Below, piece after piece: positions 3,249-20,261 of a stretch of 64,000 nucleotides of DNA. Source of the DNA: a virus. A program made the translations under genes and the position numbers. Position 1 is the first letter of the stretch, and each line of letters begins with the position of its first letter. Location: the IMG/VR virus record IMGVR_UViG_3300010232_000155. One strand, 5' to 3'. A model generated the notes under the pieces. It was not told the DNA's origin and did not search any database. It saw nothing but the letters and a program-made list of their open reading frames with translations.

Positions 3249-3635
3249 CTAAGTGCGAGTCCCCATTCTTACTTGTTTCTTGAGTATATTAACAATGTAA
3301 TGTTGAGCTGTTAGAGCAAATTCTTCTCCAAAGAGGTCAGCAACATCTTCAAATTCTTCCAACATTTCAGTTCCTTCATTCATCCTCCTCAAAGAGATCC
3401 GTCTCTGTACTTCCTCCAGTTTCTCCTCCTGTCTCCTCTGTATTTTCTGCTTCTCCTCCGTTAGATCCGGTTTGTTCTCCTCCTCCTTCTCGTCCCACTT
3501 CGGTATCTCCACGTTCTCCCACTCTGCTTGATTCATCGTCAGCTCCTCCTCCCCCTCGGTCAGATACTTCTCCGTGGCTGACTTCCCCCGATTCTTCTCC
3601 CTGAACTCCTCTGGTATCTCCGGTTCCTCGCTCAT
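3249..3635 (-). CDS. Hypothetical acidic/coiled-coil protein
   Basis: 128-aa ORF, Glu/Lys rich. Confidence 0.7.
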   Translation of the reverse strand: MSEEPEIPEEFREKNRGKSATEKYLTEGEEELTMNQAEWENVEIPKWDEKEEENKPDLTEEKQKIQRRQEEKLEEVQRRISLRRMNEGTEMLEEFEDVADLFGEEFALTAQHYIVNILKKQVRMGTRT

Positions 3636-4020
3636 TGCTTACGTCCTGGATGTTAAGTTCATCGAGTGCTGATTGTACGAGAACATCTGTTTCGTTAAGT
3701 GACGTAATATCATCAGCAAACTGCTCGAACTTGAACGGATCAAGATCACCTACTTCTATGCCCAGCTCATCAGCAGCTGATTCCTGCATACCGTCAACTA
3801 GATCATCCCTGGCCTGCTGCTTGTCAACACGACTATCCGATTTGACGATACTGCCGATCAGTTCACCAAGCTCGTTAGAGACATCATCGCCAGATTGACG
3901 CCGGTCCCTGATACGCTCGATAACAGGTGCTCTGTCCCTAACTACTGGGATGATCGGATCATCACTATCTAGAACTCGGAAATCCCTATCAATAATAGGC
4001 ATTATTGGTTCAGTCTCCAT
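3376..4020 (-). CDS. Hypothetical acidic protein; C-terminal Gly/Glu tail overlaps the next gene by 260 nt
   Basis: 214-aa ORF, acidic helical N-terminal half. Confidence 0.65.
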   Translation of the reverse strand: METEPIMPIIDRDFRVLDSDDPIIPVVRDRAPVIERIRDRRQSGDDVSNELGELIGSIVKSDSRVDKQQARDDLVDGMQESAADELGIEVGDLDPFKFEQFADDITSLNETDVLVQSALDELNIQDVSNERGTGDTRGVQGEESGEVSHGEVSDRGGGGADDESSRVGERGDTEVGREGGGEQTGSNGGEAENTEETGGETGGSTETDLFEEDE

Positions 4021-4178: not shown

Positions 4179-5114
4179 CTACGCGAAGTAAAGCCACTCT
4201 CCAAAGAGGATTCTGAGCCATACGAGCCCCCATCCAAAACTACCCACCAATAACAGAATCATACTGCTAAGATCAATAAACGACAAGGATGCTACTAGTG
4301 TAAAACTGACAATAAACAATTCCCTAATCGTGATCTTACGCTTGGCTACTGATGGTTGGTACTCACCATCGACTGCAGTGATAACTAAATACGAGATAAA
4401 CATGCTGACTATAATCGCTATTGCAGAGTAATAAATAAAATCAGCCATTGCTGCGATGAATAATAATTCTACCAGTGTAATAGTATACCATAAGGATTCA
4501 AACCGTGGTGTAATAACACCAGGTCTGCAATTTAGTAATCGTGGTATCGATGGTTCCCCGGCATGTAAGTCCTTGAGATCACCAGCAATAGTCATTAATA
4601 GCATATGAATAAATAATATTACAGCGAGATCTACAGTACTAGTCGTTGGAGTGCCTGCAGTTAATGCTCCAGTTAGTACGATAAAGATCCCCCATAGTCC
4701 CAGAATGAATGATGAAAACCGAGACTGCTTAGACGTGATATTGTAAATAATCCCAATAATAACTGCGACAAGATATGATAATTGTGCTAAATACGGTAGG
4801 ATGAATATTGTTAAAAATAATGAGACAAAGATCAATGCTAGTGAACCAATAGCAGCCTCGTATCGTCCTATTATTCCAGAGACGAGTGGCTTATCATTAT
4901 TCTTGTGATCTGTATCATACTCATAATCATAAACATCGTTCAGTGCATAGACTCCCAAGTGTCCAATACTAACAATGATCAGTAGTGGGATCACATCACT
5001 AGCTAGTATAGTCTCTGCTACTGTCCCATACGCGAGGAGGATGGTAATAATACTAACTGGGAGTGATTGTACTCTGGTTAGTATGAGCCAATTCTTGAAA
5101 TACTCAACGTCCAT
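4179..5114 (-). CDS. UbiA-family prenyltransferase (copy 1)
   Basis: Multi-pass membrane protein; NDxxDxxxD (ALNDVYDYEYD) followed by KPLVSGII; second motif GDLKDLHAGE. Confidence 0.85.
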   Translation of the reverse strand: MDVEYFKNWLILTRVQSLPVSIITILLAYGTVAETILASDVIPLLIIVSIGHLGVYALNDVYDYEYDTDHKNNDKPLVSGIIGRYEAAIGSLALIFVSLFLTIFILPYLAQLSYLVAVIIGIIYNITSKQSRFSSFILGLWGIFIVLTGALTAGTPTTSTVDLAVILFIHMLLMTIAGDLKDLHAGEPSIPRLLNCRPGVITPRFESLWYTITLVELLFIAAMADFIYYSAIAIIVSMFISYLVITAVDGEYQPSVAKRKITIRELFIVSFTLVASLSFIDLSSMILLLVGSFGWGLVWLRILFGEWLYFA

Positions 5115-5574
5115 ACGTTATTACCATCTCATGATCGGTTTCACTTGGTAGTCTGACAGCTCCTTCGATGAAGTTAATACACGTCCTAGCTGGAGAGTAT
5201 AGTTTCTTCTTCTTATGATGCCCGATGTATATTGGTCGTACTAGGGCTCTCGCACGAACGTGTAATGCCTCGGCATATGCTTGATCATTATTCTGCATAT
5301 ACTCCATATACTTTGCTTCAAACCCCGTTGTCGCCCAACCAGATCCAGCTTCCCTACTATCTCCAGTCTCTAATACGTCATCCCAGTAATTATTAGGTGG
5401 TTTTAGATCTGTTAAGTACATATCGACGTGATCAAGTATTTCTTGAGTTGGATAATTACCAATATAATAGATCATGGCATTTTCAGGTTTATCAGGTATC
5501 CCAGCAACTATTTCTCTATCATGCGTGAATCGTAGTTCGGGTTCATCGTTCTGCTCTGTTTCAAATAGTTTCAT
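5104..5574 (-). CDS. DUF488/YeaO-like protein
   Basis: VDMYLTDLKPP...FEAKYMEYM...IYIGHHKK pattern resembles YeaO; start moved to MKLF by ATGA overlap with UbiA copy 2. Confidence 0.45.
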   Translation of the reverse strand: MKLFETEQNDEPELRFTHDREIVAGIPDKPENAMIYYIGNYPTQEILDHVDMYLTDLKPPNNYWDDVLETGDSREAGSGWATTGFEAKYMEYMQNNDQAYAEALHVRARALVRPIYIGHHKKKKLYSPARTCINFIEGAVRLPSETDHEMVITYGR

Positions 5575-6560
5575 ACTCTTGGTCCAATTAATGAGCCCCA
5601 CAGAGCCTTGTTGCCTATTACAACCCAGAGTATAGACCCGAGTGATAATAAGACTACTGCTATTGTCTTAAACATATGAGCATGTATGATTATGAATATC
5701 AGCAGTGTCCATATTTCGATCATACTTATTGTCCTGATCCGTGCTGGTCTCCGATCTTGTGCGTAGAACATATCTGTCAAGAGTTGATCAGTAGAATAGA
5801 TAAGAGCTATCAAGAGTGGTATTAGTGCAAATTGTATAAGAGTTTGCTCAGTTAAGTATAGTATTAATAGTGCAGTACTAATTGTAATCAGTTTGAGTGA
5901 ATATCCATATACTCGTAGTCTTATATCGTATATTATCTTGCCATCAGAGTGTATTTTAGTAATAAAACGAGATACAATGTTTTCCTCGTCTTGAGTTATA
6001 TCCTTGATCTCGCCACTAATACTAATCTCGAACACATACCAGGTGAATACATAAGTCGCACTGAGTATGAATATAATGTTAGATGGAGAACCGCCGAGTG
6101 CAATAAATGGAGCAATGAATACTGTCGTATGTGCTATAGAGATAAAGATAAACTTGAACTGAGTTTTCTTGCCATAGTAATTGTAGAGGAAACCATTAAT
6201 TGCTCCAATAATAAGTACTCCAGCAGCTATTGGTGAATCGCTAACTAGGTAGATCACATATAATAATAATACGAGTCCTAACGAGTAGTTGAAAATCTTA
6301 GCGTCAAACTCTGTTAGTTTACCACTATTGAGCGGATGGTGCATCTTATGCTCATCATCTGTGTCATAGCCTTTCTGCCAATCTGCTAGACTATTGTTGC
6401 TGTAACCAAAACTATGATAGAGGAGTCCAAACAATCCCCATTGAGCTACTGGAATAGTAAAAATAGATCCTGTGGCTAGTCCAGCTCCAATAATAGCAGG
6501 TATTGTCTCTAAGGGAGAGCTATGGAACCTACACAATTGTAAATATGGTTTAATTCTCAT
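5571..6560 (-). CDS. UbiA-family prenyltransferase (copy 2, MenA-like first motif)
   Basis: Multi-pass membrane protein; NNSLADWQKGYD...HPLNSGKL; second motif GEIKDITQDE. Confidence 0.8.
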   Translation of the reverse strand: MRIKPYLQLCRFHSSPLETIPAIIGAGLATGSIFTIPVAQWGLFGLLYHSFGYSNNSLADWQKGYDTDDEHKMHHPLNSGKLTEFDAKIFNYSLGLVLLLYVIYLVSDSPIAAGVLIIGAINGFLYNYYGKKTQFKFIFISIAHTTVFIAPFIALGGSPSNIIFILSATYVFTWYVFEISISGEIKDITQDEENIVSRFITKIHSDGKIIYDIRLRVYGYSLKLITISTALLILYLTEQTLIQFALIPLLIALIYSTDQLLTDMFYAQDRRPARIRTISMIEIWTLLIFIIIHAHMFKTIAVVLLSLGSILWVVIGNKALWGSLIGPRV

Positions 6561-6566
6561 TTGCTT

Positions 6567-6698
6567 TTAACTGTTGTCAGAAACGTGTTCTATGATCTCT
6601 AGTTTTATAAAATCCCCCTCGTCTATATCATACTCATCTCTGACTGCAACTGGGATGCTAATTCTATGCTGTGTTTGTACTCGGGCCGTGAACTCCAT
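6567..6698 (-). CDS. AbrB/SpoVT/MazE-like DNA-binding protein, 43 aa (below track cutoff)
   Basis: MEFTARVQTQHRISIPVAVRDEYDIDEGDFIKLEII matches the AbrB pattern. Confidence 0.75.
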   Translation of the reverse strand: MEFTARVQTQHRISIPVAVRDEYDIDEGDFIKLEIIEHVSDNS

Positions 6699-6737
6699 AT
6701 ACCAAATATGGTAACTCTACCACATAAACCTTTGGTA

Positions 6738-7988
6738 TCACCAGTCTTCAGACATTCTCATTGTAGCTAGAGCTGAGCCTGATCCTTCAATACCATACGC
6801 TAATAATGAGACTATATTATTCTGACCAAAAGCAATACTAGGCTCTACCCTCGTTGAGCCCTGAGCAGTACCCGTACTTCCAGCATTGAGATGATCTTCA
6901 AACTGCTTAGTACCATCGCCAATACCATCAAACGAACCATCAAATGATACTTCTAAGAGTGTCTCATCTGGGTTAGTAAGAGATGGATTTTGAAAGTTTA
7001 ATCCACTCACGTTAGCCTTGACCACGATAGCATATTTAGAGGTTATACCAGCACTCCACGTTATTCCTTGAACATCGAGCCTTGCATTAGCCTCGTCAGA
7101 TTGTTTTCTCCTCCACGACATTACGTGACCCCAAGAGCTATCAGGTACAGTAATACCACTCTTAGTCTCCGAGGTAGTTCTATCTTCCTCTGGTTCTTGA
7201 CCAAATACGGAGAATTGCCTGCCTCCTATTCTAACTCTAATATCTTCCTTGGAGTTTTGATTATCAGCTTCAACTCTAATAGGCTGATTGGGATCCGAGG
7301 TTGTAGCCTCTTGATTAACCGTAAGTGCATGGAGTCTTATTGTTTTCTGCTTTGGATCTGCAGGTGACTCAGTATTAGCAGACTGCTGTACGATCTTGAA
7401 TATAATAATACCATACCCATACCAACTGAAGTCAATTTGAAAAATGGCACCATCAGTTATATCCCACTCGAATCCCAACGCTTCTTCAATACTCGCACCA
7501 TTCCAATTAGACCTATAAACTCTGCCGAGTTCTACACCAAAATCAATTCTTGCGACAAATAATTCCTGTTGATCTCCATCATAACCGAAATAGTATCCAT
7601 TATTATCATCATAATAACCCCACAGAACTTCACCATTGTTAGGGATTTCTGGGAATCTAATACCGAGTCCTGCTTGTGCAGAGAAACCAGGTGTGTATCT
7701 GCCATAAGAGGCTGATGATAATGTTATTGTAGAACCTTCATCAGTACCAGTTGCTAGTTCTATTTCACCACTATCAGCTGGATCTTTAGATATTGAACCA
7801 GATCCCGTAAAATCTATATCATCCCGTATCACTGAAGTACCAAACGAAGAGGTAGAATCCACGAGGCTCCTTCTCTCAATAGTAGCTGTATCATCAAAAA
7901 GAGATGTTGGATCGCCTATTCCGATTTTATCTAGCTTATCTAAAATTAATTCGAGTTTGCGAATTACTTCTGGATTACTAGTACTCAT
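6738..7988 (-). CDS. Beta-rich putative virion structural protein
   Basis: 416 aa, Gly/Ser/Thr rich with alternating beta pattern (WGYYDDNNGYYFGYDG); lies in the structural gene run. Confidence 0.6.
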   Translation of the reverse strand: MSTSNPEVIRKLELILDKLDKIGIGDPTSLFDDTATIERRSLVDSTSSFGTSVIRDDIDFTGSGSISKDPADSGEIELATGTDEGSTITLSSASYGRYTPGFSAQAGLGIRFPEIPNNGEVLWGYYDDNNGYYFGYDGDQQELFVARIDFGVELGRVYRSNWNGASIEEALGFEWDITDGAIFQIDFSWYGYGIIIFKIVQQSANTESPADPKQKTIRLHALTVNQEATTSDPNQPIRVEADNQNSKEDIRVRIGGRQFSVFGQEPEEDRTTSETKSGITVPDSSWGHVMSWRRKQSDEANARLDVQGITWSAGITSKYAIVVKANVSGLNFQNPSLTNPDETLLEVSFDGSFDGIGDGTKQFEDHLNAGSTGTAQGSTRVEPSIAFGQNNIVSLLAYGIEGSGSALATMRMSEDW

Positions 7989-8503
7989 TATTGCTCTGCT
8001 TCCAGTCTTATTAATTTGAATGTCGTGTTATCATTTTCAGGTCTGATAAGAACGTTAAGGCGTTCTCTAAAGTCATAGTCTGCTACGTGGACAACGTAAT
8101 TATCATCCTTATCTCGATAGGCACCTATTCTGGATAATTCTGTAGACATATCCGAAATATAACTATATGCATCATCGATAATATCATGCTCATCAATCTC
8201 TACTTTAACACTAAAATTAGAATCTTCTGCTATTAGTACAAAGTCTACAAGAGTGCCTGACTGTTTAATAGGCAATTCTTGCATACTACCGATCTCATCC
8301 TCGGCACTAGGCTGGTTGAAAACACCAGCTTTCAGAGTAACATCCTGCTCCTCGATAAAGAAAACGTCACTTGGCTCTGATTCTTGCTGTTCTAACAATA
8401 CACGACCCGACTCGGTATCATCCTCTTCTTCATCTTCTCTTACTGGCGATTGTGATTCCCTCGTCAGGATGTATTCTAGGATTATTTCATCTTCACTCGT
8501 CAT
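7988..8503 (-). CDS. Hypothetical protein, possible beta-sandwich structural protein
   Basis: 171-aa acidic ORF coupled to its neighbours. Confidence 0.65.
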   Translation of the reverse strand: MTSEDEIILEYILTRESQSPVREDEEEDDTESGRVLLEQQESEPSDVFFIEEQDVTLKAGVFNQPSAEDEIGSMQELPIKQSGTLVDFVLIAEDSNFSVKVEIDEHDIIDDAYSYISDMSTELSRIGAYRDKDDNYVVHVADYDFRERLNVLIRPENDNTTFKLIRLEAEQ

Positions 8504-8687
8504 TGATACCCTTGATTATCTCGACACTCTCAATATTACCATGCTCGTTTCTAATTACATTATACTCTTTCACACTAAACGATTCACGATCCTCGCTCTC
8601 GTCTGCTAATTCTATTATCGTATTCAGTATGGGAAACGGCCAGATTTCGAGTGGTCCTCTGATCTTATTCATACTAATGTTCTCCAT
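8493..8687 (-). CDS. Small hypothetical protein
   Basis: 64-aa acidic ORF filling the gap in the operon. Confidence 0.55.
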   Translation of the reverse strand: MENISMNKIRGPLEIWPFPILNTIIELADESEDRESFSVKEYNVIRNEHGNIESVEIIKGINDE

Positions 8688-9304
8688 TTAACGTTTTGCT
8701 TGCCGGGTAATTCCTCGTCAAACTCATCAAACCACATCTGTCTGAAATCGCGTACTCCAAGTCGTCCTGAAACTCCAGGTTGTGCAACATGGCGTGCTGG
8801 TTGCAGCCATGCTGATACCTCCTTATGACATGCAAGGATGATCGAATCATTCACATCATACAGGACTACGTGATACTGGTTTTTAAGCCTTTTCCAAAAC
8901 GTAGGCTGAGCAGAGATCTGTGGTACGTCTAATCGACTACCATCCTCAGTAATAAACTGCCTCGCATACGATGCATCATCGGGACCATACTCATCAGTTA
9001 CCTCGACATATGCAGTCGGATTTGAGCGCATCCCGATCTGGAGGAGTCTATTCGTTACGTCATCGATAGTCGCTCCTGGGACTTCACCAGCGTAGTACTC
9101 GTTCAAGTCAATATCTACAGTTGGATAGTATCTCAAACGGAGTTCTTGTGCAAGATCACCTCTCTTGATCTTGTTAGTAACTTGTACGTCTGGAATATCA
9201 TCGCGTTCGAGTGCAGGAGATTTAGTATCCCCAAGTATAGAGGATTTTAATCCTCTACTCCTGCTTATCCAGAGTCGTGCCTTATTCTTATACGGTGTTG
9301 CCAT
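8669..9304 (-). CDS. Hypothetical protein
   Basis: 211-aa globular-looking ORF. Confidence 0.7.
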   Translation of the reverse strand: MATPYKNKARLWISRSRGLKSSILGDTKSPALERDDIPDVQVTNKIKRGDLAQELRLRYYPTVDIDLNEYYAGEVPGATIDDVTNRLLQIGMRSNPTAYVEVTDEYGPDDASYARQFITEDGSRLDVPQISAQPTFWKRLKNQYHVVLYDVNDSIILACHKEVSAWLQPARHVAQPGVSGRLGVRDFRQMWFDEFDEELPGKQNVKWRTLV

Positions 9305-9685
9305 CTAGCTCAGAGCGGGGATGTCAGCAGGGATCGTGCCATCTTCTCTCTTCTGGTCCCAACTACAAGAAGTACGACTATTCTCATCGTGATCGCAATT
9401 GTGATACCCGATCCTGTACCAAAAAGTACCGGCACCAACGAGTCTCGTTTCCAGATCATCTAGTATGGCTGTTGCACTACTGTCTTGAATATACCGATAA
9501 TCACCGCGAACGTAATCCGTCCCACTACCATCAACTGCTGTATTAGCATCGTTCATCGTATGATCTACTGGATCATTATCCCACTCGTTAAAATTCTGCT
9601 TCCAAAGATCAATAGCATCGAGTGGAGCTTGACCTTGATTTGCCTCGATGAATACTCTCACACAATGTACTGCCATGTTCGGCAA
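9305..9685 (-). CDS. Hypothetical protein with His/Cys cluster
   Basis: 126 aa; YHNCDHDE...C possible metal site. Confidence 0.7.
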   Translation of the reverse strand: MPNMAVHCVRVFIEANQGQAPLDAIDLWKQNFNEWDNDPVDHTMNDANTAVDGSGTDYVRGDYRYIQDSSATAILDDLETRLVGAGTFWYRIGYHNCDHDENSRTSCSWDQKREDGTIPADIPALS

Positions 9686-9730
9686 TTATAGTCCCTTATA
9701 GTTAATACTTGTTACTGAAATCTTATACGA

Positions 9731-9973
9731 TTATGGATCTCCATTATTTTCGAGAGCATTTACTACTATGTAGATCTCACCGAACAGTATTAGGAATACA
9801 GCTGCAATCTTGAGTGCTGGTTCAAAAATACTCCCAAAGTCTAATAATACAGCAGTACCAAGGATGAATAATATTCTCGATTCAAAAGTAGCATCATCCA
9901 CGAATATTCTTAAATACCATGCTGCTGAAATGCCGAACACTGCTGTTGGCAGGAATACTGCTGAGTTAGTCAT
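9731..9973 (-). CDS. Small membrane protein (about 3 TM)
   Basis: Hydrophobic segments over 80 aa. Confidence 0.65.
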   Translation of the reverse strand: MTNSAVFLPTAVFGISAAWYLRIFVDDATFESRILFILGTAVLLDFGSIFEPALKIAAVFLILFGEIYIVVNALENNGDP

Positions 9974-10211
9974 TATTACCTCTATAGCTCAGTGTTAGTC
10001 CAATTATCTCATCAAGTTCGAGGAGTACCCCAATTAGTATTAGCAGTATTTGAACTCTGACTATATCAAATTGAAACGCGGGTATTAGTAAGTGGGCTAA
10101 TAGTGTCAGCACGGCTGCTAAACCTCCTAGTCCCCGAGCCATCTCGATCCAATCGACACCGACGTTCTCTACTTTCTGATCGGGCATTAACGGTCTACCT
10201 ACTGTGTTCAC
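9966..10211 (-). CDS. Small 2-TM membrane protein
   Basis: Two hydrophobic helices; true start may be the internal MPDQ. Confidence 0.65.
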   Translation of the reverse strand: MNTVGRPLMPDQKVENVGVDWIEMARGLGGLAAVLTLLAHLLIPAFQFDIVRVQILLILIGVLLELDEIIGLTLSYRGNND

Positions 10212-10333
10212 ACCTGGCCGAGATCTAATAGCGTCAGTTCTTCAGGTGGTTCCTCATCGAGAGCTGCATACCACCGTGAGAACTTCCGCGTTGAGTCTCT
10301 TGATCTGCCTATTCTATTGCTGGGTGGAATCAC
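10208..10333 (-). CDS. Possible 41-aa protein (GTG start)
   Basis: VIPPSNRIGRSRDSTRKFSRWYAALDEEPPEELTLLDLGQV; stop overlaps the next GTG. Confidence 0.35.
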   Translation of the reverse strand: MIPPSNRIGRSRDSTRKFSRWYAALDEEPPEELTLLDLGQV

Positions 10334-10670
10334 GTTACTTACTCAGTACTACTCACTAATATAAGTTGGGTTAGACGCATACCCATTACGACTAGTCGTT
10401 AGTAACCGTGGAGTAACAGTACAATCTGCTAGGAGGCCATGAGTACGAAGTATACTCTCCTAGCATGGGTTGTTTAGCATGCTCTGGGGGAGATAGCCGG
10501 GTCGAGTAGTTGGAACCGGGTTTCGGGGGTTCGTGAACCGTGGGTAGAGGGCTTCTACTCGGTTAATTCGGGGGGTGGGTAGTGTGAATTAATCCGGAAA
10601 GCGGCTGTTTTGGATTTTCCCTATGCGAGGGGTGGGGGTCGTGGTCGTTTTTTGCGGTTGGAAACCCATC

Positions 10671-11573
10671 TCACGTACTTAGCATTATTTTATCTATTTC
10701 GACTCTCGTAGTAATGTCTGAGATGTTTGTGATTACTTGTACAGCAAAGTCAGAGTGCGTGTTGCTCCAGTTCAGTCTGGTTTCGCCAGTCGTTAGTGTT
10801 GTTTGTTTTACTTCCTCACTATTAGTCTCTGGTGAACCGATCACGTATACTTGGCCAGTGTTGCCATTTAGTGAGCCTGTGATTTCTACGTTGGGGCGTA
10901 TTGCAGTGTCACTGGTTTTGGTTTCAGTGTAGAAAGTATTCCTCTGGGTTGTTTGGTAGAGGTATTGTATTTCGCTTGGAGTAAGAGTGCGATTGTAGAT
11001 TCGCACGTCTGCCATTTTTCCATCAACGTATTTACTTCCAGAATTGCCACCGTTTAAGTTGCCAATACTATTCTGTGTTGAAGTAGTATCTGGACTGTTA
11101 TTGGCTGTTGTGGCATTAGCGTCCTCGGCACCATCAATATATATTTTTAACGTAGAGCTGGATGGCTTCCATGTTCCAGTTAGGTAGTACCAATTTCCAG
11201 ATGACAGAGTAGTATTCGATGCAACTCTTTGATTATTGGTTCCATCATAAAACCCCCAGTTTACAGTATCATCAGACTTTTTTTGGAAACTCCAGTTGTA
11301 CTCTGCTTTTGGACCAAAGTAAGTCTCTTCATTACCAGCAGTATTATGTCTAATCCAACAGGTTATTGTTAATGGCTCTGAACCGTCAAAAATACCGAGC
11401 GTATTTGAAATCTGTATGTAATCATCTGTTCCGTCAAATGAGTAGGCAGTTGCTCCGAGTAGTCCAGTCTCACCTTGTGTTGCTCCTGAAACACTGCCGG
11501 TATAATTATTTCCTGAGTAGTCTTGTGCGTCACCGCTGTTCTCTTGTAGTGTGTAGTGTGCAAGTTTGCTCAT
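10671..11573 (-). CDS. LamG/concanavalin-A-like domain protein (putative spike/receptor-binding)
   Basis: AYSFDGTDDYI...W....G.MADVRIYNRTLTPSEIQYLY. Confidence 0.9.
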   Translation of the reverse strand: MSKLAHYTLQENSGDAQDYSGNNYTGSVSGATQGETGLLGATAYSFDGTDDYIQISNTLGIFDGSEPLTITCWIRHNTAGNEETYFGPKAEYNWSFQKKSDDTVNWGFYDGTNNQRVASNTTLSSGNWYYLTGTWKPSSSTLKIYIDGAEDANATTANNSPDTTSTQNSIGNLNGGNSGSKYVDGKMADVRIYNRTLTPSEIQYLYQTTQRNTFYTETKTSDTAIRPNVEITGSLNGNTGQVYVIGSPETNSEEVKQTTLTTGETRLNWSNTHSDFAVQVITNISDITTRVEIDKIMLST

Positions 11574-12883
11574 ACTTTCACCAGTTCTTTACGAAGGTCA
11601 CGACCACGAGTTCCCCACTGGTATAGATCCTGAATTTCAGCAGGTGAGAGAGCACGATCATAAATCCGAACATCATCTATTTCTCCACCGAAGTAATTCG
11701 CCCCGTCGCTACGTCTGCCAATATCCGGTCCTTCAGTAGCGGCAAAGTCAGTCACCGTACTAGTCTCGGAGGCAACTTCGCCCCCGTTTTGATAAAGTTC
11801 CAAGGTCGGGCCAGCAGAATCATAAACGCCAACGACGTGATCCCATACTCCATTCGTCACACGACCGTCTGTTATTTGGATTCTGTCATTGTTCAAGTCA
11901 CCGACTCTGAATTGGTAAGAATCAGTCCCATTATCGCGTAATTGAAGGATGATAGCAGAGCCATCATATCGACCGATAATCGTGTTCCCGTTACCAGCGT
12001 TTGACCAGTTTACCCATGTACAGATCGAAAATGATGTGTTCTTATCGAAGGCGAAGTTGGGAACATCAACATAGTCATCTGTTCCATCAAACGATTTTGC
12101 CTGACCATCGATTGCATTTTGCGTATATCCTGCTGAGGTGTTATCCGTACCATCGTTCGAGCCCCAGGAGTCCGTAACGTCCCCCTCAAACTTGTATCGG
12201 GAGATTGCGTTAGTATCCGTACCATCTGAGAGTGATGGTTCCGTGTAATCGTCAGTTCCTTGATCGTACAAGGCTTGAACTTCCTTTTGTGAGAGTACTC
12301 TGTTATAGACACGGGCATCAGCTATACTGCCATCAAACCAGTACGATGTGCCGTCAAAACTTCCAATACGGCTACTGACGTTATTCTGTGTAGTGCTGGT
12401 TATACTGTGAGATAGGAAATCTGCAAGACTCCCATCCTTATACAGCTCCATGCTAGAACCTGAGCTGAAAGTACCAACTAAGTGAGTCCACTCATTTGTT
12501 GAAACACTTGCTGTTGTTGCTCGGCTACTTCCTGCACCATCCTGCTCAACTGCGTAGGTAACTTCACCATTAGTAGCACTGTTATAAATTTCTACTTTTC
12601 CCTCTCCTTGAAAGTGAATATGTCTAATATAGTCAGTGGTCAAGTCCTTGGGGCGAATCCAGAGTGCAATTGTGAAATCTTCAGATCCACTAAATACTCC
12701 TATATTATCCGGTATGTCCACATAATCATCAGTTCCATCAAACGAATAAGCGGTCAAACCAGACCGTCCTGCAACTCCTTGAACTGCACCATTAACAGTA
12801 CCATCATTACCCTCACCAGAGAGGTCATTCGCTTCTCCACTATCCTCATGTAACGGCCACCAACCGACAAGATCATTACTCAT
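11570..12883 (-). CDS. Tandem LamG-domain protein (2 domains)
   Basis: Two FDGTDDYV...D.RIY.RALS..E repeats. Confidence 0.9.
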   Translation of the reverse strand: MSNDLVGWWPLHEDSGEANDLSGEGNDGTVNGAVQGVAGRSGLTAYSFDGTDDYVDIPDNIGVFSGSEDFTIALWIRPKDLTTDYIRHIHFQGEGKVEIYNSATNGEVTYAVEQDGAGSSRATTASVSTNEWTHLVGTFSSGSSMELYKDGSLADFLSHSITSTTQNNVSSRIGSFDGTSYWFDGSIADARVYNRVLSQKEVQALYDQGTDDYTEPSLSDGTDTNAISRYKFEGDVTDSWGSNDGTDNTSAGYTQNAIDGQAKSFDGTDDYVDVPNFAFDKNTSFSICTWVNWSNAGNGNTIIGRYDGSAIILQLRDNGTDSYQFRVGDLNNDRIQITDGRVTNGVWDHVVGVYDSAGPTLELYQNGGEVASETSTVTDFAATEGPDIGRRSDGANYFGGEIDDVRIYDRALSPAEIQDLYQWGTRGRDLRKELVKV

Positions 12884-14367
12884 ACGAGTTCACCCCTATT
12901 GATCCGATACGCCCCACGATTATACAATTCCTCAACTTCTCTCTGACTGAGAGCAGCAGAATAGATACGTAAGTCGTCTGCATCACCATTAAATTCCGAA
13001 CCACCACTTGCTCCATCGCTCCCAATATGCCAATCACTATCATTCGATGGTGGAGTCTGCCCAGGTTGATTTGTTCCTACTAATCGTCCATTCTTGTATA
13101 ATCGTTGAGTCGTACCATCCCACGTGTAAACTCCGTGTATCCATACTCCAGTACTCGCTGCTTCTGAGTCTGATACACTATAAGAGGTATCTGATAGTGC
13201 AAATTCCGTATAAAGCTGGTCAGAACCATTCACACCAAACGCTACTGTTCTATCAGATTGATCATAATCGGACAAGAGGATCTGGAAGCCAGTTCCAGAA
13301 TAATTAAACCACGCGCTTATTGTTACCGTACTCACGTCAATATCCGCAGTTGGTATCTGATCATCAGTCCCGTCAAATGACTTGGCCTGACCATACACGC
13401 CAGTTGTAAATCCAGCACTCGTATTATCAGTGCCATTATTAGAGCCCCACGAGTCGGTAACGTCATTCTCGAACTCATAGCGGGAGACACCATTATCAGA
13501 TTGAGATGGAATATCGGACTCTGTTACTTCCCTCCCCGATGGTTCACTCCTGGTAGCAATTGTTTCTATCTCTGGTTGTGATAAGGCTCGTCCGTAAATC
13601 CGTATATCGTCAAGTAAACCATTCATATAGAGGTTATCATTTCGAGCACCTAACTGTGCTGAACCGCTAAATGTGTGCGCCCCAGCATTATTATCTGCCT
13701 GAATTGTCGTTGACACACTGCTACCATCTACATATATATCGAGGTTTGAAGCACCAGCTCCACGTCGTATAAAGGCTATATGATGCCATGCTCCATCAGT
13801 ATATGTGTTATCTGTCTCTATATAATCGGCTCCGCTCCCATCGTTATGAAAGAATCTCGCTCCACCACCAGATGTATCTACAGTGTAATATACTTCAGAC
13901 CCAGTATTTCCATAATCTCCAAATAATCCCTGATCGGCATCGGTGCTGGACTCGAACCATCCGCATACCGTATACAGGTCGAAAGTAATCGTCGGAATAG
14001 ACGTTATATCTACCTTATCATCAGTTCCGTCAAATGAGAGAGCGTTGGATCCAACCTGGCCTGACCCATTCCACGTCGCACCGTTAATCTGCCCGAGATT
14101 ATCCAACGCACCATCACGAGCAACACGACCAGCACCCTCATCGAGAGGGTAATACGCAACGAGTCCTTCTGTTACACTACCAACCTCATAGCCATCAGCA
14201 ACAGTCCCAGTACCAGCGTGATCAGCCAGCGTATCATGAGTAACACCGGAATCCTCCACGTTATTATTAAAATCACTCTCAGAAGTGTACTCAAGAATAA
14301 TACTGGCTATTTCCGACAGGTTCTGCAGACCACTCTTATCAACAACCCCTGATTGATTAAGAGGCAT
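12880..14367 (-). CDS. Tandem LamG-domain protein (2 domains)
   Basis: Two FDGTDD...DDIRIY.RALS repeats. Confidence 0.9.
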   Translation of the reverse strand: MPLNQSGVVDKSGLQNLSEIASIILEYTSESDFNNNVEDSGVTHDTLADHAGTGTVADGYEVGSVTEGLVAYYPLDEGAGRVARDGALDNLGQINGATWNGSGQVGSNALSFDGTDDKVDITSIPTITFDLYTVCGWFESSTDADQGLFGDYGNTGSEVYYTVDTSGGGARFFHNDGSGADYIETDNTYTDGAWHHIAFIRRGAGASNLDIYVDGSSVSTTIQADNNAGAHTFSGSAQLGARNDNLYMNGLLDDIRIYGRALSQPEIETIATRSEPSGREVTESDIPSQSDNGVSRYEFENDVTDSWGSNNGTDNTSAGFTTGVYGQAKSFDGTDDQIPTADIDVSTVTISAWFNYSGTGFQILLSDYDQSDRTVAFGVNGSDQLYTEFALSDTSYSVSDSEAASTGVWIHGVYTWDGTTQRLYKNGRLVGTNQPGQTPPSNDSDWHIGSDGASGGSEFNGDADDLRIYSAALSQREVEELYNRGAYRINRGELV

Positions 14368-14693
14368 TAATCATTGACCTCCATACCAGTAGCGAAAAAA
14401 TCCTGCTGAGACGACGTAGTATTATTAATCAGAATACGATGGTTTTCTGACGACGATATAGTTAACTGGTTCTGCTGTGAGTGCCACTCGTTAGTAACCT
14501 GATCAATTAATATTGAAACTTCAAACGTACCATCACCATCGACATCTGTCTCCCTATAAATGTCTGCATCCCCAGTTCCACCAAACTCGTGAATTTCAGC
14601 AGCTCCAGTTGCCGAACTACTTCCATCTATGATAAAATCTGCTCCTGCTGCAATATCAACCCCAGTCTCGTGGTACGTATCATTAACAGCCAT
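14367..14693 (-). CDS. Small beta-rich putative structural protein
   Basis: 108 aa, beta-strand pattern, coupled to the LamG gene. Confidence 0.6.
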   Translation of the reverse strand: MAVNDTYHETGVDIAAGADFIIDGSSSATGAAEIHEFGGTGDADIYRETDVDGDGTFEVSILIDQVTNEWHSQQNQLTISSSENHRILINNTTSSQQDFFATGMEVND

Positions 14694-14752
14694 CTACTCG
14701 TAATCCTCTCTATGTTCAACCCATACTCCGGGAGGGGTTAAATAAATTCCGG

Positions 14753-15232
14753 TCATTGCTGGTTGCCGAAAGCACGACGAGCAAGCATCTGAGATGCACT
14801 ATCGCCCTCACCCGATTCCTCTTCAATATACTCTGGAGTAAGATCCTGCTGCATACGAGCTAAGTGCTGTGCAACTTGAGTTACGGGAACAACTGGAGTT
14901 GGTGTTGTCGTAAACGTGAAAAACGATCCCTCGTCTCTTACTGGTACTTCGACTACACCAACACTCTTGAACTCATACTCTGTTTCTGGAGATAATCCAG
15001 TAACACGCGTTTCGACACTCTCCGTGGTCGAAACGGTCGTCGTACTAGTATTACTCAACGAGTCACTACCCGTTTCTCGATACTCAAAATTAAAATCAGC
15101 ATCTCCACTCCTCGAAGTTAACTCGGTTACAGATCCTTGTAGATCTGCCTCCGTATCAAAGATATTACCCACTCCATCAGTACTAACTGAAATCCGTTGA
15201 AACGCTGGGAATTGAAACGAGGGAAACGGCAT
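14753..15232 (-). CDS. Fibronectin type III-like domain protein
   Basis: RVTGLSPETEYEFKSVG FN3 signature. Confidence 0.7.
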   Translation of the reverse strand: MPFPSFQFPAFQRISVSTDGVGNIFDTEADLQGSVTELTSRSGDADFNFEYRETGSDSLSNTSTTTVSTTESVETRVTGLSPETEYEFKSVGVVEVPVRDEGSFFTFTTTPTPVVPVTQVAQHLARMQQDLTPEYIEEESGEGDSASQMLARRAFGNQQ

Positions 15233-15335
15233 TACTCACTATCATCCTCTTCTTCTTCAGAAACTACTACCTCGCCACCATCTGTTGTAATCACCGTAAA
15301 CTGGACTGAAGCCATACTGTTAATACTATCAATCG

Positions 15336-15779
15336 TCATTGTTGAACGTCTGTTACCTCTCCAATGATACCCACGTTCACATTCTGCGAAGCTCCAGTAC
15401 CATTATTGAAATTGCCATTATCAACCACTACGGCAATACTCTCATCATTTGACCCCGTATTCTCATAATCAGTAATCGGATTCCCAACCTCGTCATCATA
15501 AATAGCCGATCCATCTCCAGTTAGTATATCCTTGATCTTTTCACCGCCTCCAGTATTATCTAACCTGATGATAATAAGATCGAGATTATTCGGTACGGCA
15601 GCTCCACCACCATCGAGTAATGCAGCTCGTTCTATGACGAGTTTCTCATTACTCTTGACTTCAGTCATATACACGACACCTGATTCTCCTGCTTGTACTG
15701 TGCCTCCGATATTAGAAACTATACTAGCATCTGTTACTCCCGAACCTGCACCACCGCCTCCTGATACTCCAATGGACAT
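15336..15779 (-). CDS. Putative structural protein, paralogue of the N-terminus of 15819..17168
   Basis: Shared GGGG N-terminus and LDLII..LDNTGGG....I.TGDGS. Confidence 0.7.
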   Translation of the reverse strand: MSIGVSGGGGAGSGVTDASIVSNIGGTVQAGESGVVYMTEVKSNEKLVIERAALLDGGGAAVPNNLDLIIIRLDNTGGGEKIKDILTGDGSAIYDDEVGNPITDYENTGSNDESIAVVVDNGNFNNGTGASQNVNVGIIGEVTDVQQ

Positions 15780-15818
15780 GTACTCAATTAATACTCCCCA
15801 TACACTTAACTATGGTGG

Positions 15819-17168
15819 TTATGAGGATTGTTTTTTTGCATAGTCAAATTTGACCTTGCTATCAGATGAATTATTGTTATTGCCATATCCGATCCCACCG
15901 CTAGTGTGGTCAGTATTAGTTGTTGAGAGTGTTCCGAGTGAATTACCACTAGCATCGATAGCTTCTGCTGTGATTGTACTGCTATCTGTTTGTATATCCC
16001 ATTTAACCCACTCGTTAGTTGGTGTTGGTGTGTCCTCAACAGTATCGAGTATGTTTGGTGATGAATTTAGATCACCCTCATGTTCTCGAAGTTCTAGACC
16101 AGGAACACTCTGATCAGTAGCTACATCTGCATATTCTAGTATGACTACGTATCCAGTTTGAGCTGAGACATCTACGAAGAATTTGAAATTGGCCCTAGTA
16201 TCATTGCCTTGCGGATTTACATAGGCGTCAACATCATCACCGCGACTTATTGGAAGCTGTGGACGATCTTCAGTAGCAGCCCATGCGGAGTCACTACCAT
16301 TATCATATACTAAGTACTTATCTCCATCTTTTGCTCCATTTGCTTGAACTGAAAATGCAGTTTGATCGTCAAACGTATAATCTGATAACGGGTCAGTACG
16401 CTCGAAGTTTTCAATAACTGGATCTCCAGTAGTAAACGTCTTTACATCCCCTCTCGTAATACTGAGATCACCACCATACGTCGTTACTGCCCTCCACTTG
16501 TACTCTGTGTTAGCATCTAAACCACTGATAGTCTTAGTATATGATTGTGCTTGTTCAACCAGGTCTTGATCATCATTAGTTACATAGAGATTATCTCCCT
16601 TCGGTTTATACTCGACAATTTCTCTCGCTCGACTATAACCACCGAGGTCAGTAATTTCTCCTGTTAAGTCTGCACTAACACTAACAACGTTTGAATCAAG
16701 AGTAATTACCGTGGGAGTTTCAAAATCTGACCCACGACCAGATTGTCCGACCATACCACCTGCTGCCACTGTCGCTGATCCCTCTCCTGTCCCACTACCA
16801 AAATGTCCATTATCTATGAGTACTCCAACAGTTTGAGGACCACCACTAGTATTAGTATACTCTCCAAGTCCAGTCGTCTCGTCAATCTTGAGACTGCCAT
16901 CACCAGTGATAATCTCTACTTGCTTGGTTCCTCCACCAGTATTATCTAGAGTGGCAATAATCAGGTCAAGCCCTGATGGAGCTGGACTGCCATCAGCAGA
17001 TACTAGATATGCTTGTTGAATATCGAGTGATTCATTCTCTTTGAGCAGATCCACGTAGATAATTCCAGCATCACCTGATGATATTGTTCCAGTTGCATTA
17101 CCAACTACAGTTGCAGTATCTAATTCTGCTCCTCCACCACCACCACCGCCGAGAACATTGATTGGCAT
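15819..17168 (-). CDS. Multidomain structural protein (N-terminal paralogous domain + FN3 + beta-sandwich)
   Basis: ISGLDANTEYKWRAV FN3 motif; beta-rich C-terminal domain. Confidence 0.7.
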   Translation of the reverse strand: MPINVLGGGGGGGAELDTATVVGNATGTISSGDAGIIYVDLLKENESLDIQQAYLVSADGSPAPSGLDLIIATLDNTGGGTKQVEIITGDGSLKIDETTGLGEYTNTSGGPQTVGVLIDNGHFGSGTGEGSATVAAGGMVGQSGRGSDFETPTVITLDSNVVSVSADLTGEITDLGGYSRAREIVEYKPKGDNLYVTNDDQDLVEQAQSYTKTISGLDANTEYKWRAVTTYGGDLSITRGDVKTFTTGDPVIENFERTDPLSDYTFDDQTAFSVQANGAKDGDKYLVYDNGSDSAWAATEDRPQLPISRGDDVDAYVNPQGNDTRANFKFFVDVSAQTGYVVILEYADVATDQSVPGLELREHEGDLNSSPNILDTVEDTPTPTNEWVKWDIQTDSSTITAEAIDASGNSLGTLSTTNTDHTSGGIGYGNNNNSSDSKVKFDYAKKQSS

Positions 17169-17211
17169 ATCCTCTGGTACTAGCGCAGTACACTTATATG
17201 TTGGGTTGATC

Positions 17212-18153
17212 TCAATACAGTATTTCAGTAGCCAAGGGTATCACTACGCACAGCACCATACCAACGTAGTAATACGACCAAGCGGGATGGTTTCCAGTTC
17301 GTTCTGATATACTCTCAGGATACTGGTGCATATAGAAACACATTATGAGAGCTGGTACTGCAATTGCATTCATCGTCCACAAATACTCTGGTAATATACC
17401 AGCATCAATCGCTATAATTATTACTCCAACCATCAAGAACGTGCATACTAGTGCAATATAGGCAACTGCCTCTGTACCAAATACGACAGCAAAGGTTTTA
17501 ATCCCATACTCCTCATCCGTTTCACGATCAATAATATCTGCGGAATTTTGAAATCCCAAAACATATAGAGAGAGAAACAGACCAAGTACCCACGGTGTCA
17601 ATTGGAACGGGTCATCATACACTGCCCAGATCGTGGGGAACAAGAGCAGTCCACGACTAGCAGCTTGCCAGGGTATTGAAATAATCCGTTCCTTCGCACG
17701 TATTGGATCGAGATTATAGAACACTCCAAAGAATATGAGTACGGATACGAAGATACCGAACATCGTGCCCGTAATATACGCACGTCCTACCGCCATGAGC
17801 ATTAAGATCCAAGCTATACTACGAGCTTCTTCCTCCGTCATAACACCAGCTGGGATTGGTCTATCTTGCTTGTGAGGCGTATTCTTGTCTATCTCTGCGT
17901 CCTCTGCCATGTTCAAGCTCTGCGAACCGGCATGAGCAAAGGCAATTGTGACTGAAACAAAGATAATAGTATCTATCTCTTGCATGATCATAGCAGATTG
18001 GTTTTCATAGTAGAAGTAGAACACAAGCCCCACCATGTACGCCCCGGCAACCCCGACCGTACTGAGAGGTTTCGAGGCGTCCAGATATGCTCTCGTCTTA
18101 ACAGGGAGTATCGTTACTTTATCGTAACTTTCACCGAGTCCCCACTTGACCAT
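17212..18153 (-). CDS. UbiA-family prenyltransferase (copy 3; DGGGP-synthase/chlorophyll-synthase-like motifs)
   Basis: SLNMAEDAEID...DRPIPAG and NSADIIDRETDEEYGIKTFAVVFG; multi-pass membrane; own TATA (TTTTATA) upstream. Confidence 0.9.
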   Translation of the reverse strand: MVKWGLGESYDKVTILPVKTRAYLDASKPLSTVGVAGAYMVGLVFYFYYENQSAMIMQEIDTIIFVSVTIAFAHAGSQSLNMAEDAEIDKNTPHKQDRPIPAGVMTEEEARSIAWILMLMAVGRAYITGTMFGIFVSVLIFFGVFYNLDPIRAKERIISIPWQAASRGLLLFPTIWAVYDDPFQLTPWVLGLFLSLYVLGFQNSADIIDRETDEEYGIKTFAVVFGTEAVAYIALVCTFLMVGVIIIAIDAGILPEYLWTMNAIAVPALIMCFYMHQYPESISERTGNHPAWSYYYVGMVLCVVIPLATEILY

Positions 18154-18202: not shown

Positions 18203-18457
18203 CTAATATAGATCCTCAGCATCATTATTGTGTGCTATTGTAACGAGATACCGTTTCCTAAACCCGAGATCCCTATCTACAGTAAGATTAATTACTTCTT
18301 GATCCCTCAAGGGAATAAGCGGGTGTACCTCAGTCCTGGCTGCCCTCCTAGCATTGAACTCTGAGAAGGGTTTGAATCCAGTTGCCAGTACGGAGAAAAT
18401 ATCCTCTTCGCTTTGACCAACATCACGACGGTCTACAATTTTAGCATTGAGTGTCAT
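18203..18457 (-). CDS. Small alpha/beta protein (possible member of the paralogue family)
   Basis: beta-helix(ARRAAR)-beta-beta pattern. Confidence 0.6.
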   Translation of the reverse strand: MTLNAKIVDRRDVGQSEEDIFSVLATGFKPFSEFNARRAARTEVHPLIPLRDQEVINLTVDRDLGFRKRYLVTIAHNNDAEDLY

Positions 18458-18840
18458 TGCATTAACTCCCTATCAGTGACTTCCACGGTTACTTGCCACG
18501 TCGTAACTGTCGACCTCTCTGTTACCTTGGCAGTTCCAGTTACCTCGGTTTCTCTAATGAAGAAATCAGCACTCGATGGAGCAGCACGTAATCGTGCAAC
18601 TGCCTCTGCTATATCCCGACTATACGCATCGATCCGAAACGTGTGTGTTCCATTTCTGTTCTCGTGAGATTGTACCCTATATCCTGGATCAAGTTCATCT
18701 CCAGGGACGAGACCTCTTACTAGTGAGACTGCTGCTACTCCAGTAAAGCCAACAAGATCACCATCGCCAGCAATTCCTAATGGTCCATTGGGAATACTAC
18801 TCGTGACTTCTTCAAATGCTGATCGTATTGGTCTAGCCAT
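18454..18840 (-). CDS. Small alpha/beta paralogue-family protein
   Basis: Clear paralogue of 21088..21594 (GDLVG, PGY.V, T..I.A.S.D.AE.VA, PS..DF). Confidence 0.75.
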   Translation of the reverse strand: MARPIRSAFEEVTSSIPNGPLGIAGDGDLVGFTGVAAVSLVRGLVPGDELDPGYRVQSHENRNGTHTFRIDAYSRDIAEAVARLRAAPSSADFFIRETEVTGTAKVTERSTVTTWQVTVEVTDRELMQ

Positions 18841-19240
18841 TATCGATCACTTCATACGGGACTGTCCAAATGTTCATATACGTTCCACGTCTAAACTCGT
18901 CAAACTTCAAACGCTCTTGGAGTCTCTCCGTTAGTATTTCTCCAAACTTGGAAGCGTGTTCAATCTCCTTATACTGGAATGTTATCTCCCCAGCATCTTC
19001 AAACTTTTCCTCGGGTTCGACAGTGGTAAATGGTCCTTCTCTCCAGACCATGTCTATACCCAGCTCGTCAAATGCTGCAACTGCGAGTGTTCTCTGACCA
19101 AGACCATGACCAACGACAGCCCTGTTTGCTACCCTGTTGAGTGATGCCCTATTAGATATTGCGAATCTCGTAACTGCGTATATTCTAAGTACTTGCTCAT
19201 CGTCGTCGTACTGGTATGATACGTCTGTTAGTATTCCCAT
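18833..19240 (-). CDS. Hypothetical protein (possible distant family member)
   Basis: 135-aa coupled ORF. Confidence 0.65.
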   Translation of the reverse strand: MGILTDVSYQYDDDEQVLRIYAVTRFAISNRASLNRVANRAVVGHGLGQRTLAVAAFDELGIDMVWREGPFTTVEPEEKFEDAGEITFQYKEIEHASKFGEILTERLQERLKFDEFRRGTYMNIWTVPYEVIDNG

Positions 19241-19626
19241 TATGATTCCTCTCTATATGCTGTGTATGATGTGGACCAAACACCTGCTCTCTCGATTTCT
19301 ATTGCACCACCATGAACAGATGGCGCGAATGTTATTCTAAACTCACCAGTACCGATGAATCTTTCAAACATTCTCCTCCCAATCTCAGGTCTATCTACAT
19401 CCATGACATTGACGAGACGTTCCATCTGATTTTCCATATGTATCTTTACCCAGTCTACATACTCTTGATCTGGTGTATCTATCTTTTCAATATGATCTAA
19501 TGGAATAGAAATAATATTATTATGTTCTTCGCCAACTCTGAGACTCTTATTTTCTATTCTTGGATTAAGATAATCCATTTCTTCTAAGTGCTGTACTGCT
19601 TCCTGTGCGCGTTCTCTATCAACCAT
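19240..19626 (-). CDS. Hypothetical protein
   Basis: 128-aa coupled ORF. Confidence 0.65.
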   Translation of the reverse strand: MVDRERAQEAVQHLEEMDYLNPRIENKSLRVGEEHNNIISIPLDHIEKIDTPDQEYVDWVKIHMENQMERLVNVMDVDRPEIGRRMFERFIGTGEFRITFAPSVHGGAIEIERAGVWSTSYTAYREES

Positions 19627-20259: not shown

Positions 20260-20261
20260 TG

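Follow-up and report, generated by a model that had tools for sequence, protein, structure and literature searches.

Three divergent UbiA paralogues form a conserved, co-inherited core module in an undescribed lineage of virus-like elements from hypersaline habitats

To our knowledge and by the literature searched, archaeal viruses carry no genes for lipid synthesis and draw their lipids from the host. Eukaryotic giant viruses do carry lipid-pathway genes, recently captured from their hosts, that tailor host or virion membranes, as in the sphingolipid pathway of coccolithoviruses. UbiA-like proteins of unknown function have also been grouped from phages (phrog_18914), so a viral UbiA gene as such is not unprecedented. 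Here, we analyzed a 64,000-nucleotide stretch of DNA (the window; IMG/VR record IMGVR_UViG_3300010232_000155), within which an original prediction had placed a virus-like element with three UbiA prenyltransferase genes. We found that these genes, which we call c1, c2, and c3, are real, mutually divergent, and all on the minus strand, with a single open reading frame (ORF) between c1 and c2, as had been predicted (Table 1). The concept resembles that of the coccolithovirus lipid genes, but enzymes, chemistry, and hosts are unrelated, and the UbiA genes of the element are without a close cellular homologue. The match of c3 to phrog_18914 is weak (1.1e-10), and the family is not known to include a conserved set of several copies. 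Haloarchaeal tailed viruses (Caudoviricetes: HGTV-1, HRTV-25, HCTV-5, and HVTV-1) share with the element an acidic proteome and a related PolB (31-34% identity), and HGTV-1 gp10 is 54% identical to a 416-aa protein of the element. However, none of these viruses has UbiA genes, and the element has no recognized terminase, portal, HK97 capsid, sheath, or tape-measure gene.

The Pfam threshold for UbiA (PF01040, 34.2 bits) was passed by c1 and c3. No match was obtained for c2 itself in Pfam, NCBIfam, or PHROG; three of five of its homologues (36-43% identity) carry PF01040, and c2 aligns to c1 over its full length, with a profile-profile probability of 100% in hhalign (E 1.6e-42). The AlphaFold2 model of c2 (predicted local distance difference test score, pLDDT, 91.6) matched DGGGP synthase, with the Methanocaldococcus enzyme MjDGGGPS on top, AfUbiA, and ApUbiA in Foldseek searches at TM-scores of 0.6-0.7. 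The model of c3 (pLDDT 94.3), which contains nine transmembrane helices, matched DGGGP synthase, AfUbiA, and ApUbiA at 0.64-0.76. Both models superpose on structures 6M31, 4TQ3, and 4OD5 (Foldseek probability 1.00, TM-score 0.6-0.76). On profile and model evidence, then, c2 is a UbiA protein despite the Pfam miss, and c1 probably has the UbiA fold as well, because it matches c2 in hhalign. Hidden Markov models (HMMs) built for the three types found no further UbiA-like ORF in the window.

The set carries the two Asp-rich motifs that define the UbiA superfamily, although not in the form first described, which had the second motif shortened in c1 and c2 and both motifs intact in c3. This description holds for c1, whose second motif is reduced to (D)xKD...E and whose first, N(D/E)xxDxxxD, is canonical and invariant. 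In c2 it is the first motif that is altered (NSxxDW..G.D..D), whereas the second is canonical and invariant, DxxxD(E) in the form KDxxxDE. The motifs of c3, NxxED...D and DxxDxxxD, are invariant, but the first is without the Asp at position 2. Heme O synthases likewise have a first motif without this residue. Residues without variation are N59, D63, D67, P76, G80, Y124, S128, K181, and D182 across 12 locus copies of c1, with Asp or Glu at position 60; N56, S57, D60, W61, G64, D66, D69, K72, P76, L77, N78, G80, Y126, N127, K131, K186, D187, D191, and E192 across 13 locus copies of c2; and N81, E84, D85, D89, K95, R98, Y146, N147, R152, K154, D206, D209, and D213 across 30 sequences of c3. Asp-rich, YN...K, and K/R residues specific to each orthogroup are thus retained over 12-30 sequences at 20-59% identity. 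By mean pairwise identity, c3 evolves slowest (54%), followed by c2 (39%) and c1 (30%).

Ratios of nonsynonymous to synonymous substitution (dN/dS), calculated from two close relatives with unsaturated dS, were 0.06 for c1, 0.13 for c2, and 0.02 for c3, which indicates purifying selection. A DNA run contains a related strain, and of the 16 listed differences that separate it from the window within c1, 13 fell at third codon positions. Assembled contigs from two halite RNA-seq libraries cover parts of all three genes at 100% identity, a result that is compatible with transcription in nature. Invariant motifs, low dN/dS, and RNA-library contigs together make it likely that c1, c2, and c3 are catalytically active. 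A complex prediction for c1 with c2 scored 0.00, which weighs neither for nor against binding.

A survey of co-occurrence, which the original prediction had proposed, showed that the trio is not peculiar to the window. Homologues of c3 number more than 170 at 48-66% identity, many of them on contigs of 50-130 kb. About 45 related loci (labeled L) were retrieved, and their ORFs were assigned to the three orthogroups by HMM. Wherever a related metagenomic locus runs as far as the module end, marked by an MCM-like ATPase or the integrase (12 loci), the genes lie on one strand in the order c3, c2, c1; five further loci end at c2 because the contig ends there. Two subclades share a common frame, consisting of an S8 protease, small conserved proteins, c3, a variable cassette, c2, c1, small acidic proteins, and the MCM-like ATPase. 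Pairwise divergences of c1, c2, and c3 are correlated (Mantel r 0.84-0.92, p≤0.0005). A maximum-likelihood tree recovers every orthogroup as monophyletic (100% bootstrap), places c1 as sister to c2 (100/100), and repeats one internal structure in all three subtrees. A quick tree joined distant c2-like genes to c2 (SH-aLRT support 88), with weak monophyly of c1, and c3 sits within a radiation of unnamed metagenomic proteins.

Parts of this arrangement reach further. Distant locus L171 has the S8 protease, c3, a c2-type UbiA gene, and the MCM-like ATPase, and L172 has the ATPase and c3. In addition, non-halophilic contigs of 43-70 kb (L126-L134; median isoelectric point 6.3-9.0) carry, in this order, protein family F24, a ParA/Mrp-like ATPase, a c2-type UbiA, and a c3-type UbiA. 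The pairing of c2-type and c3-type genes is therefore older than the halophilic group, in which alone c1 has been seen so far. Together, these results show that an undescribed lineage has the trio as a conserved core module, inherited jointly and under purifying selection. The best explanation is a lineage of archaeal virus-like elements of about 55-130 kb from hypersaline habitats, in which the set is inherited vertically. The c3 family thereby offers a sequence marker to find these elements in metagenomes.

Searches of cellular genomes pointed to no near source for these genes. No close homologue was found in 185,579 species-representative genomes, where the best matches (22-34% identity, E~1e-9) came from Iainarchaeota, Heimdallarchaeota, and various bacteria; with the c3 HMM, cellular homologues scored at most 64 bits, as compared to at least 220 bits for element copies. 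These values speak against a recent capture from a host. None of the three proteins had a tblastn match in 50,697 annotated virus records (INPHARED), among which no close relative was found by DNA either, and c1 and c3 had no match in the IMG/VR contigs searched, whether by single proteins or by the c3 alignment. The lineage thus has no representative in the annotated virus collections searched or among the species reference genomes. A literature search, largely outside subscription journals, found nothing on virus-encoded UbiA or DGGGP synthase in archaea. The suspicion that no archaeal virus with such a set had been described was thereby borne out in the annotated records and literature searched, and we could not find in either a conserved, co-inherited set of two to three divergent UbiA paralogues as the core of an archaeal mobile-element lineage.

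Which reaction each protein would catalyze is less clear-cut. Against the NCBIfam equivalogs for DGGGP synthase (EC 2.5.1.42), c3 scored 41 bits with a cut-off of 296 (NF009521) and 32 with a cut-off of 353 (NF009522), and c2 had no match; the best NCBIfam match of c1 was NF009523 'prenyltransferase' (55 bits, cut-off 269). Equivalogs for heme O synthase, 4-hydroxybenzoate (4-HB) polyprenyltransferase, chlorophyll synthase, MqnP, and DPPR synthase were all missed by 4- to 10-fold, for example with 48.5 bits vs. 210 for TIGR01473, 38 vs. 275 for TIGR01474, 48 vs. 313 for ChlG, and 31 vs. 207 for DPPRS. Because all curated subfamily thresholds fail, we assign no acceptor class, and the roles suggested by the original prediction (a custom virion membrane, altered host quinones, or lipidated virion proteins) stay conjectural. 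The proteins c1, c2, and c3 belong to the UbiA superfamily but fit no characterized subfamily, and they offer enzymology three new subfamilies with unusual motif variants.

Profile searches of the Protein Data Bank (PDB) returned DGGGP synthase (MjDGGGPS) as the best match of c1 (4.9e-16) and the sole match of c2 (8.8e-6), and returned chlorophyll synthase, DGGGP synthase, ApUbiA, and DPPR synthase about equally for c3. Structure searches against reviewed proteins (AlphaFold/Swiss-Prot) placed heme O synthases at the top for c3, and 4-HB prenyltransferases and DGGGP synthases at the top for c2, at 13-21% identity. The acceptor rankings from NCBIfam, PDB profiles, and Foldseek disagree, and all are weak. 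By profile and model, c1 and c2 most resemble DGGGP synthase. The M. jannaschii enzyme (6M31/7BPU) shares the UbiA fold and the Asp-rich Mg2+/diphosphate motifs and is the top PDB match of c2 and c3 in Foldseek (TM-score 0.6-0.7), but identity is just 17-19%, equivalog scores are 32-41 bits against 296-353, the first motif of c2 and the second of c1 deviate, and here three paralogous forms occur in a mobile element. Heme O synthase (protoheme IX farnesyltransferase, CtaB/CyoE) heads the AlphaFold/Swiss-Prot matches of c3 with TM-scores of 0.7-0.78; however, identity is 13-20%, and DGGGP synthase and homogentisate phytyltransferase match c3 almost equally.

The reading that we tentatively prefer, at a little less than an even chance, is that the element-encoded UbiA proteins make or remodel isoprenoid compounds of the membrane and so tailor the membrane of a particle or of the infected cell. 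Each enzyme would bind a host-made isoprenoid diphosphate through Mg2+ and its Asp-rich motifs and pass the prenyl group to a membrane-embedded acceptor, either a different one for each enzyme or in successive steps. The products would be element-specific isoprenoid membrane compounds, lipids or lipid carriers, made together with the protease, small proteins, and adhesins encoded in the same-strand block, and the membrane so remodeled may be the source of the element's particle or the surface of the infected cell. Catalysis, donor, acceptor class, timing, and the link to particles in this scheme are all what we infer. Prenyl donors would have to come from the host, since no other isoprenoid-pathway gene was seen in the element. 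Glycosyltransferases in the element and its relatives could provide a link to glycolipids. More broadly, the conserved UbiA core suggests that rebuilding of host membrane lipids, or of lipid carriers, is common to the elements as a group. If so, an archaeal mobile element would chemically tailor isoprenoid membranes or lipid carriers, unlike archaeal viruses as they are known, and would offer a testable entry into the interplay of virus and host membranes in hypersaline and other archaeal communities.

Several observations weigh against this reading. In structure searches, heme O synthases, 4-HB prenyltransferases, DGGGP synthases, and homogentisate phytyltransferase all come out about level, and the listed Pfam hits of the element include no other gene of an isoprenoid pathway. 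Capsid and packaging genes were not recognized, and nothing indicates a membrane-containing particle. The reduction of the second Asp motif in c1 also counts here, as does the fact that the RNA-library contigs could reflect carry-over of DNA. Finally, one relative (L006/L175) shows neither c2 nor c1 within 20 kb downstream of c3; its homologue of F10, the gene that precedes c2 elsewhere, lies at +17 kb, and c2 and c1 may therefore lie further on.

How far the remodeling could serve a particle depends on the nature of the element, which is about 82 kb in size. Window GC content is about 44%. Its proteome is strongly acidic (median isoelectric point 4.56, with 73% of proteins below 5), which indicates a salt-in halophile as host, and window DNA is present in halite metagenome runs. 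The Haloferax host implied by the original prediction found no specific backing, and an Atlas cluster label ('Archaea 54%, Methanobacteriota') gives no more than a slight indication. By Pfam, the window encodes a tyrosine integrase, an MCM-like AAA ATPase, an intein-bearing PolB, a prim-pol, a UvrD helicase, a D12 methylase, a PD-(D/E)XK nuclease, a ParA/Mrp-type ATPase, an S8 subtilase, and a glycosyltransferase. Neither Pfam nor PHROGs detected terminase, portal, or capsid genes in the 64-kb window and about 13 kb of flanking sequence from overlapping contigs of the same sample, although very divergent versions could escape, and HK97 capsid, sheath, and tape-measure genes went unrecognized over the same range. 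The three genes that mark Caudoviricetes (terminase large subunit, portal, and HK97-fold major capsid protein) are thus not seen. A 243-aa beta-rich protein, searched against the Atlas as a capsid candidate, gave just unnamed viral clusters and a weak cupin-like similarity. There is likewise no sign of an integrated provirus: the 10 kb beyond the integrase (in L174) hold unknown ORFs, one glycosyltransferase, and one methylase but nothing host-like, and the 185,579 species genomes contain no provirus copies. The prediction of a virus-like element is therefore upheld in part. A halophilic, virus-like mobile element is supported, but virus status is not established, and "virus-like" is the limit of the designation because no terminase, portal, or capsid gene was detected in about 79 of 82 kb. 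The element is a free, unclassified virus-like element, neither a demonstrated virus nor a provirus.

The same gaps lend some weight to an alternative that we regard as unlikely though serious, namely that the element is plasmid-like or integrative, possibly spread in membrane vesicles, and that its UbiA set serves vesicle or host-membrane biology and not a virion. It would account for the missing terminase, portal, and HK97 or other capsid genes, for the absence of relatives in INPHARED and in the IMG/VR contigs searched, and for a ParA-type ATPase, an integrase, and an MCM-like ATPase, all typical of plasmids too. It sits less well with the homologue of an HGTV-1 virion structural protein (54% identity), the fibre-like lectins and baseplate-like domains, a replication module (intein PolB, prim-pol, UvrD, and D12 methylase) closest to that of haloarchaeal tailed viruses, and a protease trailed by small conserved proteins that resembles a morphogenesis block; moreover, novel capsid proteins would escape Pfam and PHROGs. 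The expectation of virion-like neighbors is borne out in part, by the 416-aa HGTV-1 gp10 homologue, three Laminin_G_3 proteins, and two proteins with a baseplate domain, but not by any capsid, portal, or terminase. A broader proposal, in our view distinctly unlikely, takes the UbiA pair or trio as the mark of a large unrecognized lineage of archaeal mobile elements, halophilic and non-halophilic, without conventional capsid or packaging genes, whose members would make their own isoprenoid compounds for a membrane-bounded particle of vesicle or envelope type. These would then be the first archaeal virus-like elements with an element-encoded step of lipid synthesis. One role could be to provide this step to hosts that are poor in lipid synthesis; the nearest named cellular homologues are from DPANN archaea (Iainarchaeota).

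The position of the UbiA genes on either side of a hypervariable adhesin/fibre cassette raises a different possibility, in which the enzymes modify not bulk lipid but a lipid carrier or cell-surface component (a polyprenyl or dolichyl phosphate, as in decaprenyl-phosphate phosphoribosyltransferase, or a lipid anchor). An altered surface glycan or S-layer could then lead to superinfection exclusion or receptor masking, or the element's own adhesins could be glycosylated, an outcome that we consider improbable, as we do the modification itself. GT1/GT4 and GT2 glycosyltransferases in the element and its relatives fit this idea, and DPPR synthase is among the PDB and NCBIfam matches of c1 and c3, but it is never the best match and lies far below the cut-offs, and nothing else suggests a phosphoribosyl pyrophosphate or sugar-phosphate donor. 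Moreover, the adhesin cassette was inserted between c3 and c2, and compact relatives, in which these two genes lie 1 kb apart, have almost none of it, so the adjacency of UbiA and adhesin genes is not ancestral.

A role as auxiliary metabolic genes (AMGs) that boost host respiration or pigments while the cell is infected, in the manner of MenA, heme O synthase, or lycopene elongase, seems more doubtful still. Heme O synthases are the best reviewed-protein matches of c3 and share its first motif without the second-position Asp, and automatic annotation by the Joint Genome Institute labels homologues as 4-hydroxybenzoate polyprenyltransferase; yet the equivalog thresholds are missed widely (heme O synthase 48 bits vs. 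210, 4-HB polyprenyltransferase 38 vs. 275). Nor do the genes have the close host homologue and sporadic presence expected of AMGs. There is no close cellular donor (best identity 22-34%), and the genes are core and syntenic in the relatives that reach the module end, three paralogues kept over deep divergence and in different habitats, which is not the pattern of an AMG captured sporadically. The least probable alternative is that at least one copy, with c1 the prime candidate, has lost catalysis and serves as a structural or regulatory membrane subunit with the UbiA fold: c1 is the fastest-evolving (mean pairwise identity 30%), with its second Asp motif cut to (D)xKD, and the first motif of c2 is non-canonical, but c1 retains canonical N(D/E)xxDxxxD and invariant K181-D182, the first motif of c2 still has three invariant Asp residues and its second motif the DxxxD, and dN/dS is 0.06-0.13.

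Features of the window are collected in Table 1, in which protein families conserved among the loci are labeled F.

Table 1. The three UbiA genes and the features around them, in window coordinates
Feature	Position	Strand	Evidence and context
Tyrosine recombinase (integrase)	345-1349	-	Pfam Phage_integrase 7.9e-13; same position in L001, L005, L092
MCM-like AAA+ ATPase (F4), closes the module on the opposite strand	1476-2507	+	Pfam MCM/AAA; downstream of c1 in 12 loci
F21, very acidic 214-aa protein	3376-4020	-	directly after c1 in 5 loci
c1, putative UbiA-fold prenyltransferase, 311 aa	4179-5114	-	Pfam UbiA 2.8e-18, 66.6 bits
F28, soluble ORF between c2 and c1, 165 aa	5104-5601	-	accessory; clusters only with a 144-aa ORF in L004/L005
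c2, putative divergent UbiA-fold prenyltransferase, sister paralogue of c1, 329 aa	5571-6560	-	profile and model evidence
Homologue of a tailed-virus head-module 'virion structural protein', 416 aa	6738-7988	-	phrog_1645 at 5e-64; adjoins c2
F22 (7988-8503) and F10 (8669-9304), conserved small proteins	7988-9304	-	in 5 and 9 loci
Three Laminin_G_3 (concanavalin-like lectin) paralogues, adhesin/fibre cassette	10671-14367	-	Pfam 5.5e-28 to 1.7e-59; phrog_8510, phrog_18503
Two proteins of 147 and 449 aa, each with a domain also found at the C-terminus of a PHROG 'baseplate protein'	15336-17168	-	phrog_20556 at 2.3e-23 and 9.4e-22
c3, putative UbiA-fold prenyltransferase, lineage anchor gene, 313 aa	17212-18153	-	Pfam UbiA 6e-32, 111.3 bits
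Run of small conserved soluble proteins F3, F5, F7, F8, F19, F15, F9, between the S8 protease and c3	18203-23811	-	in 6-15 loci, order conserved
S8 subtilase heading the same-strand block	23853-25346	-	Pfam Peptidase_S8 9e-27; upstream of c3 in 19 loci and distant L171
F24 (435 aa), 125-aa protein, and ParA/Mrp-NBP35-type ATPase (433 aa)	27553-30535	+	Pfam ParA/NUBPL 1.6e-40; PDB Fe-S carrier/Mrp homologues 2e-17

Among the neighbors of the UbiA genes, the 416-aa protein is 53.6% identical to HGTV-1 gp10 and 31% identical to Sulfitobacter phage phiGT1 gp4, both of which are encoded next to the portal gene. The matches of the two baseplate-related proteins to phrog_20556 are restricted to profile positions 394-527. 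F22 and F10 precede c2 in relatives of subclade A, F3 adjoins c3 in both subclades, and F28 had no Pfam, PHROG, or NCBIfam match. No transmembrane segment was found by hydropathy in the window copies of the small-protein run. Since this also holds for the other neighbor families examined in their window copies, the UbiA proteins appear to be the only multi-pass membrane proteins of the block.

The Laminin_G_3 cassette is a variable insertion between c3 and c2, a region whose content and length differ among relatives. The gap spans about 1 kb in compact relatives, 10.6 kb in the window, and a variable region of more than 20 kb in L006/L175, and across relatives it holds lectin, Kelch, PQQ-propeller, and CarboxypepD_reg adhesin-like genes. 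A contig from the related strain (DNA run, 90-95% identity) skips 1805 bp (11623-13429) within the Laminin_G_3 array, which suggests gain or loss in the adhesin cassette at the strain level. In L006/L175, the variable region includes Kelch and PQQ beta-propeller proteins, and a LAGLIDADG homing endonuclease gene lies directly downstream of c3 (10969-11748 in L006 coordinates).

The MCM-like ATPase is kept at the module end in all relatives, the distant L171 and L172 included. A tblastn search of 72,556 plasmids and 50,697 virus records gave no match to it, and for this reason it may be a second marker of the lineage. The unit of F24, the 125-aa protein, and the ParA/Mrp ATPase is tied to the UbiA pair even in non-halophilic relatives at about 30% c3 identity. 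An SCP2-like C-terminus had been proposed for this ATPase but could not be confirmed: the Mrp/NBP35 N-domain alone matched, and the C-terminal half of about 250 aa is without a recognizable family.

PolB (1338 aa; 43719-47735, minus strand) contains an intein, with Hint and intein-splicing domains at about residues 511-903, between the exonuclease and polymerase domains. Two tRNA genes on the minus strand (41819-41953 and 42085-42203) match the Rfam tRNA model at 48 bits each. Because these matches, of 135 and 119 nt, span the full model, both genes contain introns; ARAGORN, unlike Rfam, reported zero tRNA genes, and a 269-aa ORF that overlaps both (41846-42655) is probably spurious. By BLAST clustering, F5 forms a pair of paralogues (18454-18840 and 21088-21594), as does F9 (22859-23164 and 23164-23811). 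Members of subclade B (L099, L101, L106, L109, and others) have, two genes downstream of the subtilase, a protein of about 200 aa (F6) with a JAB/MPN-like metalloprotease motif, HxHP...S..D, and in L007 a ferritin/rubrerythrin-like gene (8071-8676) lies among the small proteins upstream of c3.

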